Source: Escherichia phage vB_EcoM_P54. Taken from it: DNA of 64,000 nucleotides. The DNA lies in sequence record PV390658.1; one strand, given 5' to 3'. The notes beneath the pieces were generated by a model. That model worked only from the letters and a program-made list of their open reading frames with translations, had not been told where the DNA came from and did no database searches. Below are positions 20,519 through 22,333 of the stretch, piece after piece (positions within the stretch are counted from its first letter, which is position 1; the number at the start of each line of letters is the position of its first letter). The position numbers were made by a program, and so were the translations under genes.

Positions 20519-20546
20519 TTGACATAGAAAATTTGGTGAGTATACT
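20519..20546 (+). promoter_or_regulatory. sigma70-like promoter (TTGACA-16-TATACT) embedded in an 8 bp inverted repeat
   Basis: TTGACA at 20519-20524, TATACT at 20541-20546; GGTGAGTA (20535-20542) pairs with TACTCACC (20566-20573). Confidence 0.5.
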
Positions 20547-20619
20547 GAGCAGCATAAACCAACGGGTACTCACCAGCATCACTTAAGAGTCTTCTAAGAA
20601 GGTTTTTAAGTGATGCTCG

Positions 20620-20689
20620 GTCAGGTATGGTGCGGTGGTGTAAGGTGGTGTCAGGTGTAGTATGGTGCGGTGATGTGAGGTATGGGTAG
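20620..20689 (+). repeat. pentanucleotide-periodic tract (GGTNN x14)
   Basis: Reads GGTCA GGTAT GGTGC GGTGG TGTAA GGTGG TGTCA GGTGT AGTAT GGTGC GGTGA TGTGA GGTAT GGGTA. Confidence 0.75.
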
Positions 20690-20767
20690 TTAGTCTCAGC
20701 TACATTAAAATGAGACTTACCTTTTTAAAAGGTCTTTAAACAGGGTATTTTAATAAGGTAGTGTCAG

Positions 20768-20829
20768 GTTAGGTTAGGTGCGTTTTGGTAGGGTAGGGTA
20801 AGGTTCGGTAAGGTATGGGTGGATGGTAG
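20768..20829 (+). repeat. pentanucleotide-periodic tract (GGTNN x12)
   Basis: Reads GGTTA GGTTA GGTGC GTTTT GGTAG GGTAG GGTAA GGTTC GGTAA GGTAT GGGTG GATGG. Confidence 0.75.
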
Positions 20830-20926
20830 TAGCCACGTTAAAAATCTACCAAGTTTCTAAAGAGTCTTCTGTTGAGGGTTCTTTACAAACAACTTAACAA
20901 TCAACTAAAGTGTGGAGCTAAATGCT

Positions 20927-21514
20927 ATGAAACTGTTAAATATCAAAATCACTGGTACTCGTCCTTTCCTGAGCCACGCTGATACACTGTCAGACCCATT
21001 AAACCCTCTGACAAAATATCACAAGTCTCTGTCCAGTAAACGTAAAAAGACCGACGAAGACTATGCGCTCTTAGCAGAAAGCCAACTGGTAACTTCTTGT
21101 TACTACGATGAGCAGCTAGGTTTTGTTATGAACGGTGAGATGATTGAGGCTTGCATCAAGTCTGGTGCGAAACTCAACAAACTTGGTAAGGTGATTGACC
21201 GAGCCATTATGCTGACAGATGTAGTCTTCCCAATGACTATCAAGAACTGTCCAGCAAACCCACAAGAACTTGCTAAGAATCCAGACTTTATCTATGCTAA
21301 GTCTGTTAAGATTGGCACAGCACGAGTTATGAGCTACCGTCCAATCTTCCGTGACTGGTCTGTAGAGTTTGGTTTGATGTTCGATGAAGAGCAAATCACC
21401 AAAGAAGAACTCTTGATGGTTCTGGAAAATGCTGGTAACCTTTGTGGTGTAGGTGATTGGCGTCCACGCTTTGGTCGTTTTTCTGTAGAAGTTATTTCAG
21501 AAGGTAACGTTTAA
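20927..21514 (+). CDS. hypothetical protein (~195 aa), cassette gene 1 between the twin structured elements
   Basis: ORF track 20912..21514 begins at a GTG; ATG 20927 (MKLLNIK) has a TGGAG RBS. Confidence 0.5.
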
Positions 21515-21516
21515 TT

Positions 21517-21957
21517 ATGAATACAAAAGCATTAGCAGCAAAGTTTAGTTACGGTGACACTGTATCACATTCTGAGATGGATACCTTCTTAGGTATTGCG
21601 AAGCCAACTTATCAAGGTGACATTGTTAAGTACGAAGATGAAATGAAGGCTTATGCACTTACACGTCTAAACCGACTTGAGAAGTTTATTGAGAAGCTCC
21701 TTAAAGAAGAGAAGATTTATCTGGTTGCTTCAATGGGTGTTGGTTATCGTGTGGTTGAGCCTAAGCATCAAGCAACTATTGCAAAACGCAAAATGTCTGG
21801 TAAGATTGGTCGTGCTTTAAAGCAAGCCACTCAAGCAATTGAGAATGTGAACACTATGGCACTTAGCCATCAAGAACGTTCACGACTGATTGAACAGCAA
21901 AACCATTTAGCTGCTATGAAAGCTAACATTAACAAGCAACGTAGAAAACCTTTCTAA
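21517..21957 (+). CDS. hypothetical protein (146 aa), cassette gene 2
   Basis: ORF track; followed by a terminator hairpin at 21969-21992. Confidence 0.5.
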   Translation: MNTKALAAKFSYGDTVSHSEMDTFLGIAKPTYQGDIVKYEDEMKAYALTRLNRLEKFIEKLLKEEKIYLVASMGVGYRVVEPKHQATIAKRKMSGKIGRALKQATQAIENVNTMALSHQERSRLIEQQNHLAAMKANINKQRRKPF

Positions 21958-21968
21958 GTTGACTAGGT

Positions 21969-21992
21969 AGCCTCTTCGGAGGCTCCTTTTTA
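21969..21992 (+). terminator. rho-independent terminator after cassette gene 2
   Basis: AGCCTC-ttcg-GAGGCT hairpin followed by CCTTTTT. Confidence 0.65.
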
Positions 21993-22020
21993 AAAGGTCT
22001 TTAAGAGGGTCTTTTAATAA

Positions 22021-22090
22021 GGCTCGGCAATGTTCGGCATGGTCTGGTATAGTCCGGTGCTGTTCGGCGTGGTAAGGTGAGGTATGGGTA
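22021..22090 (+). repeat. pentanucleotide-periodic tract (GGYNN x14)
   Basis: Reads GGCTC GGCAA TGTTC GGCAT GGTCT GGTAT AGTCC GGTGC TGTTC GGCGT GGTAA GGTGA GGTAT GGGTA. Confidence 0.75.
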
Positions 22091-22158
22091 GTTAATCGGA
22101 GCTACATTAAAATTCGATTACATCACTTAAGAGTCTTCTAAGAGGATTTTTAAGTGTT

Positions 22159-22218
22159 GTGAGGCGAGGTACGGTCGGGTATGGCTATGTCTGGTATGGT
22201 TTGGTATGGAAGGATGGC
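22159..22218 (+). repeat. pentanucleotide-periodic tract (GYNNG x12)
   Basis: Reads GTGAG GCGAG GTACG GTCGG GTATG GCTAT GTCTG GTATG GTTTG GTATG GAAGG ATGGC. Confidence 0.7.
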
Positions 22219-22260
22219 AGCAGCCTTATAAAAAATCTGCCAAATAAGCTATAAAATCTG

Positions 22261-22295
22261 TTGACAAGTCAGGTGTTATAGCTTATTTTTATACT
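22261..22295 (+). promoter_or_regulatory. putative promoter with TTGACAAG box flanked by an 11 bp inverted repeat
   Basis: TTGACA 22261-22266; candidate -10 TATTTT (17 nt spacer) or TATACT (23 nt spacer); ATAAGCTATAA / TTATAGCTTAT brackets the -35. Confidence 0.4.
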
Positions 22296-22333
22296 CAATG
22301 TAATACAAAATTTAATATAACTTTGAGGTCATT

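Follow-up and report, generated by a model that had tools for sequence, protein, structure and literature searches.

In Escherichia phage vB_EcoM_P54, which is Felix O1-like, interval 20519–22330 is almost certainly a complete type II VIPR system, comprising vipr, vap1 and four guide RNA (vrRNA) genes, two upstream and two downstream of the coding pair. All coordinates refer to the window, the 64,000-nucleotide stretch of record PV390658.1 that was analysed. VIPR (Viral Interference Programmable Repeat) was first described in two 2026 preprints (bioRxiv 10.64898/2026.04.26.720920 and 10.64898/2026.04.26.720927), in which Vipr is presented as a minimal RAMP protein with RRM core, G-loop and thumb, which binds vrRNAs of 9–16 YNNGG repeats followed by a 3' tail pseudoknot. 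According to these preprints, one Vipr protomer occupies each repeat and sequesters GGY, the NN dinucleotides pair with double-stranded DNA with one target base skipped per repeat, and transcription is silenced. Most guides of the clade of phage SUSP1 are reported there to be aimed at a satellite phage in E. coli genomes. The P54 locus is an orthologue of this system, already published as preprints in April–June 2026. The observation is real and far beyond chance. From the sequence itself, we show the orthology of the proteins, the statistics of the repeat code, covariation in the pseudoknot and matches of guides to targets.

Orthology of the two cassette proteins

In a PDB sequence search, the product of gene 20927–21514 matched entry 36pp, 'SUSP1 Vipr protein', with E = 8.5e-129, and it is identical to SUSP1 Vipr at 192 of 195 residues. 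The RNA- and DNA-contact residues of Vipr (H17, K33, R39, E71, M72, K82, G87, K88, R138, C173, D177, W178 and R179) are all conserved. An earlier note on this DNA, made from the letters alone, had found no recognisable function for the two bracketed genes, a statement that the PDB match overturns for gene 20927. Searches of Pfam returned nothing above curated cut-offs for either cassette protein, and PHROGs gave only families of unknown function. The product of the second gene is identical at 144 of 146 residues to that of the open reading frame (ORF) that follows vipr in the SUSP1 contig (our label L017, 90,743 bp), and its role as the accessory protein Vap1 is taken from bioRxiv 10.64898/2026.04.26.720920; neither a Pfam family nor a PDB relative was found for it. 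As a side point, residue 175 of Vipr (21449–21451) is V here and in the deposited 36pp sequence, whereas the structural preprint (10.64898/2026.04.26.720927) says T175, which is probably a numbering or text slip.

When IMG/VR was searched with the 195-aa protein, 18 close loci and 6 distant loci at 37–40% identity were recovered. In five of the 6 distant loci, GG tracts of period 5, built of GGCNN units, flank the gene on its own strand. Because even distant homologues keep flanking GG tracts, the protein and the tract travel together over deep divergence. The distant loci lie in high-GC viral contigs, with GGCNN tracts arranged back to back (L025 2930–2990, 3565–3850 and 4322–4500; also L022, L023, L024 and L026). 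These tracts end in AAGGTTTTTT right before the ribosome-binding site of the next gene, and the array architecture differs from that of Felixounavirus.

Four guide units around the gene pair

Alignment of four sub-intervals revealed four homologous units of ~140 nt, two on each side of the two-gene cassette and all on the + strand. Each unit is composed of a long hairpin, 11–15 GGYNN pentamers, an invariant TATGG and a 34-nt H-type pseudoknot (Table 1). In the terms of the earlier note, the hairpin corresponds to H1 or H3 and the pseudoknot to H2 or H5. The homology of the four intervals spans their whole length, and the shared modules were also recovered by a repeat finder. The earlier note had described two elements of ~380 bp built from the same modules in different order. 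Its modules are all in place and the difference in order is real, while the alignment divides the material better into four units; the order follows from the hairpin occurring in two versions (X and Y) and the tail in four (A–D), which run X-A, Y-C, genes, Y-B, X-D. The same layout was found in 6 of 20 related phage loci and is the commonest arrangement there. A scan of both strands of the window detected period-5 GG phasing in four tracts only, all of them on the gene strand.

The first pair of units falls in the interval that separates the DNA ligase gene from gene 20927 (20519–20926), and the second pair in the one that separates gene 21517 from gene 22334 (21958–22333). Both intervals are non-coding, as had been stated, with ORFs of only 31–36 aa. 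A sigma-70-like promoter directly 5' of the first unit probably drives vrRNA1, vrRNA2, vipr and vap1. The TTGACA promoter that the earlier note had placed inside an inverted repeat is indeed there, at the end of the second interval; it faces gene 22334 and most likely belongs to that gene and not to the VIPR system.

The window belongs to Felixounavirus, the Felix O1-like myoviruses of E. coli, Salmonella and Shigella; 257 Felixounavirus records match the region at 92–96% identity. In the GenBank annotation of related phages, the intervals carry only 'repeat_region', TransTerm 'terminator' and 'promoter' features, and Rfam at the gathering threshold gave nothing in 20519–22330, its only matches being 23 tRNAs at 49.8–55.5 kb. 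The element is mentioned neither in the Felix O1 genome paper nor in the Bas63 gene-essentiality preprint.

Repeat code, tail pseudoknot and hairpin

Repeat statistics were calculated from 95 vrRNAs (76 unique tracts) of the window, 20 phage loci and 4 satellites. Over the unique tracts, the entropies of the three GGY positions were 1.00, 0.13 and 0.48 bits, and those of the two N positions were 1.92 and 1.89 bits. As such, GGY is conserved and NN is hypervariable, with G at pentamer position 2 in 938 of 952 units. The tail pseudoknot was evaluated on 26 distinct tails that align without gaps: 90.9% of the cells were paired, compared with 28–39% in a control in which the partner was slid by 1–3 columns. 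Compensatory change was present in 9 of the 11 pairs, so that the tail shows covariation.

The hairpin before each guide folds markedly better on the + strand. For hairpin X at 20575–20617, the folding energy was -22.8 kcal/mol (z -6.25) on the + strand versus -17.1 on the - strand, and a second pair of values was -11.3 (+) versus -7.3 (-) kcal/mol. The consensus over 30 variants is a 16-bp stem in which G·U or U·G pairs are kept in 25–30 of the 30 sequences and six pairs are changed on both sides.

The 3' arm of the hairpin ends where the matched guide starts, at unit 2 of vrRNA1. For SUSP1 vrRNA1 we counted 13 repeats, the hairpin-derived unit included, and 12 repeats are reported for the purified complex (bioRxiv 10.64898/2026.04.26.720927). 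Considering both the position of the 3' arm and the 12 purified versus 13 counted repeats, the hairpin is probably removed during maturation. By word search, the main text of neither VIPR preprint mentions a hairpin 5' of the guides, RNase processing or maturation, while hammerhead ribozymes between guides are reported there for other VIPR types. Since those types use hammerhead ribozymes and no signal is mentioned for type II in that text, we suggest that the hairpin before each guide may serve in type II arrays as a signal for processing or as an insulator.

The core motif of the hairpin (AAGAGTCTT...AGGGTT) is also present at 20857–20890, between vrRNA2 and vipr, and a weaker copy lies at 57540–57584. 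The hairpin loop of three related phages contains a 22-nt insertion (L001 3441, L008 4187 and L015 4181).

Guide targets in an E. coli satellite

A BLAST search of complete E. coli genomes with the locus as query located vrRNA-like sequence in 152 genomes, where it sits in an island of ~12 kb whose integration site is yecE or the interval between tonB and yciI. Genes for a large serine recombinase and for baseplate and tape-measure proteins are found on the island together with small unknown genes, and relatives of it are present in 547 of 5,426 E. coli genomes. The E. coli collection was searched by BLAST, and gapped-pattern matching of guides to satellites was carried out on fetched loci, namely a first set of 14 satellite-bearing loci (12 E. 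coli regions and 2 IMG/VR satellite contigs) and a later set of 22 satellite-bearing E. coli regions.

When one target base was skipped per repeat, 36 of 69 Felixounavirus guides had an NN match of at least 90% in the 14 loci, compared with 0, 0 and 1 guides for control skips of 0, 2 and 3 nt. Units 2–14 of vrRNA1 match the satellite tape-measure gene at 26/26 NN bases (L038 5529–5573 and L061 5449–5493) and at 25/26 in many other satellites. The site of vrRNA2 lies farther upstream in the tape-measure gene (satellite L057 4993–5028), with 22/24 NN bases overall and 21/22 for units 1–11; the exact vrRNA2 pattern had no match in IMG/VR, and the 22/24 site in L057 came later. Units 1–11 of vrRNA3 match at 22/22 in the IMG/VR satellite contigs (L039 12890–12928 and L040 4883–4921), antisense to a 107-aa gene of unknown function. 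Dinucleotide-order shuffles on the 14 loci reached the observed 26/26 (vrRNA1), 19/22 (vrRNA2) and 22/22 (vrRNA3) in 0 of 200 cases each; the 21/22 site of vrRNA2 in L057 came later and is outside this control. While vrRNA1 and vrRNA2 have the same sense as the tape-measure mRNA, vrRNA3 is antisense to its gene. That both strands of the target are used fits recognition of DNA better than recognition of mRNA.

The satellite baseplate protein is 73% identical to the phage protein encoded at 35116–35889 (-), and its tape-measure protein is 28% identical to that encoded at 36570–38138 (-). The corresponding values between SUSP1 and the satellite are 72% and 26% (bioRxiv 10.64898/2026.04.26.720920, fig. 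S14). We infer that the satellite is a parasite of phage P54 itself. Although two of the guides in the window target the satellite tape-measure gene, neither has a near-match in the corresponding gene of the phage.

Proposed mechanism and competing explanations

In the mechanism that we propose, transcripts of the locus would be cut into vrRNAs of ~100 nt, each with 10–14 GGYNN repeats and an H-type pseudoknot as the 3' cap. Each pentamer would be bound by one Vipr protomer that buries GGY and displays NN, and NN would pair with double-stranded DNA while every third target base, usually at the codon wobble position, is skipped; the resulting R-loop filament would then block transcription. Three of the four guides would be aimed at the ~12-kb E. 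coli satellite with its own tape-measure and baseplate genes. For SUSP1, the 98.5%-identical orthologue, the preprints report vrRNA expression, formation of the ribonucleoprotein, the skip rule in vitro and in vivo, and silencing.

Several points weigh against this picture. Function in P54 (expression, processing and binding) is transferred wholly from SUSP1. Both vrRNA3 and vrRNA4 lie 3' of the terminator-like hairpin that follows vap1 and have no strong promoter of their own; in SUSP1, the downstream vrRNAs are reported in the preprints to be expressed. The 3'-most one or two units of vrRNA1 and vrRNA3 mismatch their targets. For vrRNA4, the best matches in the 22 satellite-bearing E. coli regions were 14–15/22, which is not above background and was also at background in the shuffle test. 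A 15/22 in-frame site that recurs at the N-terminus of the tape-measure protein is likewise not above background and is not claimed as a target. Two 18-base patterns of vrRNA4 gave no exact match in IMG/VR. In a metagenome collection there were 13 matches, located in short ORFs or unrelated genes and none of them similar to phage or satellite, and in GTDB genomes there were 3 (Fluviicola, Clostridia and Syntrophaceae); both results are consistent with chance. In favour of the VIPR reading, in turn, no guide has a site of at least 80% NN match to the phage itself within the window, a check that covers 64 kb of the ~88-kb genome.

The intervals might instead be cis-acting structured 5' leaders, such as an attenuator, a riboswitch or a TRAP-like site, that control the bracketed genes and gene 22334, which is close to the earlier note's view of them as leaders. 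The first array does lie between a promoter and vipr, and a TRAP-type ring protein reads RNA with a 5-nt period. Against this, the second array comes after the terminator and before the promoter of gene 22334, and therefore falls outside the leader of that gene. Furthermore, it is a foreign element that the variable bases match by a specific gapped code, which a cis-regulator would not need, and in SUSP1 the vrRNAs are reported in the preprints to accumulate as separate ~100-nt species bound to Vipr. We consider cis-acting leaders very improbable; the intervals almost certainly encode trans-acting guide RNAs that are loaded by Vipr.

Less probable still is that the G-rich tracts act as DNA, either as an R-loop or G-quadruplex replication origin or as a packaging site in the replication gene module. 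The tracts have a strong GC skew, up to +0.68, and the locus adjoins ligase and polymerase genes. However, the G·U pairs and compensatory changes in hairpin and pseudoknot indicate selection on the + strand RNA, NN is hypervariable among phages that are 92–96% identical, unlike in an origin, and the element co-occurs with vipr over deep divergence. Among the options that the earlier note had offered, a structured RNA locus and an accessory cassette are both right, and a replication or packaging cis-element is unsupported. Ordinary short promoters at this place in related phages, which that note had named as evidence against a conserved element, were not what we found: the 20 related loci and the homologues at 37–40% identity keep pentamer tracts.

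A reading of the tracts as functionless, whether as simple-sequence repeats in decay or as scars of recombination, has nothing in its favour beyond their low-complexity appearance and is refuted by the restriction of the only four tracts of the window to one strand, by G at position 2 in 938/952 units, and by perfect targets (26/26 and 22/22) that shuffles fail to reach, so that we give it practically no weight. A TRAP-like protein sponge, an R-loop origin, G-quadruplexes and ToxI-like antitoxin repeats had also been candidates and were dropped after Vipr was identified and the gapped code matched foreign DNA.

Returning to the VIPR system, one extended proposal is put forward only tentatively, as it may well be wrong. 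The 16–20-bp hairpin with its outer-stem versions X and Y could be an undescribed maturation or insulator signal of type II, playing the part that hammerheads play elsewhere, for example through a cut by host RNase III; together with tails A–D it could form a fixed scaffold for recombinational guide exchange, and the fourth guide could be aimed at an unsampled mobile element.

Satellite-borne guides without vipr

Four satellites contain one vrRNA each, with tract and tail intact (L028 12004–12102, L029 16145–16243, L027 15004–15092 and L033 11298–11391). No homologues of vipr or vap were detected in these four satellites by tblastn at E <= 0.01. As they have neither gene, the satellite guides would have to use the Vipr of the helper phage.

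With a 1-nt skip, the guide shared by L028 and L029 matches at 21–22 of 24 NN bases a site that lies on the chromosome beyond the satellite (L028 17869–17904, L033 15422–15457 and homologous sites). This site looks like an E. coli repetitive extragenic palindromic (REP) element. Using a 36-nt REP query composed of the guide NN bases and the REP skip bases, we found the REP-type target at 100% identity in 5,032 records and a related form in 5,426 of 5,426 E. coli genomes, with at least 40 pieces per record in 4,166 records. By word search, REP elements are not mentioned in the main text of bioRxiv 10.64898/2026.04.26.720920. The REP-matching satellite guide may serve as a decoy by sequestering the Vipr of the helper, or may be directed at host DNA.

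Comparison with known RNA-guided and repeat-reading systems

The closest relative is the type II VIPR system of SUSP1. Both have GGYNN vrRNAs, the same classes of 3' pseudoknot, the same family of satellite targets, a position after the DNA ligase gene, and orthologous Vipr and Vap1. The arrays differ in being 2 + 2 in P54 and 1 + 3 in SUSP1, all four guide sequences are different, and one P54 guide has no identifiable target.

With the class 1 CRISPR-Cas backbones (the Cas7 filaments of Cascade and type III), VIPR shares, according to the preprints, a RAMP polymer on a guide RNA, a thumb that flips bases periodically, and R-loop recognition of DNA. In contrast, VIPR is phage-encoded, reads 2 of 5 RNA bases and 2 of 3 DNA bases, and has no reported protospacer adjacent motif; its locus lacks a repeat-spacer array, cas1/cas2, Cas6 and a nuclease. 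The P54 locus itself is not a CRISPR-Cas locus, for its units consist of hairpin, pentamer tract and pseudoknot rather than of repeat and spacer, and Pfam and PHROGs searches found no Cas domains in the neighbouring ORFs.

In Vibrio phage ICP1, a canonical type I-F CRISPR-Cas system, capable of acquisition and of degrading its target, is directed against the PLE satellite. In both ICP1 and VIPR, a lytic phage aims an RNA-guided system at a chromosomal satellite that exploits it, whereas VIPR silences by means of a single 195-aa protein; we know of no acquisition machinery for VIPR. The leader RNA of the trp operon, bound by TRAP, has 11 G/UAG triplets at a period of ~5 nt; the TRAP ring is closed and controls attenuation in cis, and the spacers of the RNA carry no information. 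Short motifs at a ~5-nt period, each taken by one protomer of a homo-oligomer, are common to TRAP and VIPR. In VIPR, however, the spacers are informative, and DNA is the target of an RNA that works in trans.

Feature coordinates and neighbouring genes

Table 1. Positions of the predicted features of the P54 VIPR locus within the window.
Feature	Position	Strand	Remarks
vipr, RAMP-family protein, 195 aa	20927..21514	+	PDB 36pp and SUSP1 orthology
vap1, VIPR accessory protein, 146 aa	21517..21957	+	144 of 146 residues shared with the phiSUSP1 ORF (L017) that follows vipr
vrRNA1	20609..20717	+	15 GGYNN units 20609-20683 (units 2-14 = matched guide), class A tail pseudoknot 20684-20717
vrRNA2	20757..20850	+	12 GGYNN units 20757-20816, class C tail pseudoknot 20817-20850
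vrRNA3	22021..22119	+	13 GGYNN units 22021-22085, class B tail pseudoknot 22086-22119
vrRNA4	22153..22241	+	11 GGYNN units 22153-22207, class D tail pseudoknot 22208-22241
GGYNN tracts	20609-20683, 20757-20816, 22021-22085, 22153-22207	+	15, 12, 13, 11 units
Period-5 GG tracts (scan coordinates)	20605-20693, 20743-20841, 22007-22105, 22144-22227	+	
Hairpin X (H1 in the earlier note) before vrRNA1	20575..20617	+	3' arm overlaps first degenerate pentamer
Hairpin Y (H3 in the earlier note) before vrRNA2	20718..20760	+	Folding, consensus stem
Hairpin Y before vrRNA3	21983..22024	+	Folding, consensus stem
Hairpin X before vrRNA4	22119..22161	+	-19.5 kcal/mol, z -6.0
Sigma-70-like promoter TTGACA-16-TATACT	20519..20546	+	11/12 match; directly 5' of first guide unit
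Intrinsic-terminator-like hairpin after vap1	21969..21991	+	Hairpin proper 21969-21984; T-run overlaps 5' arm of next hairpin Y
Inverted repeat around promoter TTGACA-17-TATTTT	22242..22289	+	Arms 22242-22260 / 22270-22288; promoter 22261-22289, 10/12 match

Elsewhere in the window, two small + strand ORFs at 17809–18027 (72 aa) and 18215–18448 (77 aa) look like paralogues, with the ends ...DKTGYLKGERVNIESLL and ...DRTGVLKGERIDILELL, respectively. A tRNA cluster at 49839–55490 (-) has 24 genes by ARAGORN, 23 of which are above the Rfam gathering score, and is typical of Felixounavirus. In the related phage Bas63, a Ro60-like gene is reported to adjoin the tRNA genes (Bas63 preprint).

Significance

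The preprints describe VIPR as RNA-guided DNA recognition and propose that it is older than CRISPR, and the P54 locus is a clean natural example of it. The present analysis adds an independent replication of the 1-nt-skip code by sequence comparison and the assignment of P54 guides to targets, twice to the satellite tape-measure gene and once to a 107-aa satellite gene. It also adds a conserved pre-guide hairpin, which may explain how type II arrays are processed, and the finding that some satellites carry guides without a vipr gene; neither of these two is mentioned in the VIPR preprint text that we consulted. The remaining interest lies in this hairpin, the orphan fourth guide and the satellite-borne guides. 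During infection, the most likely role of the system is to silence a parasite of the phage.

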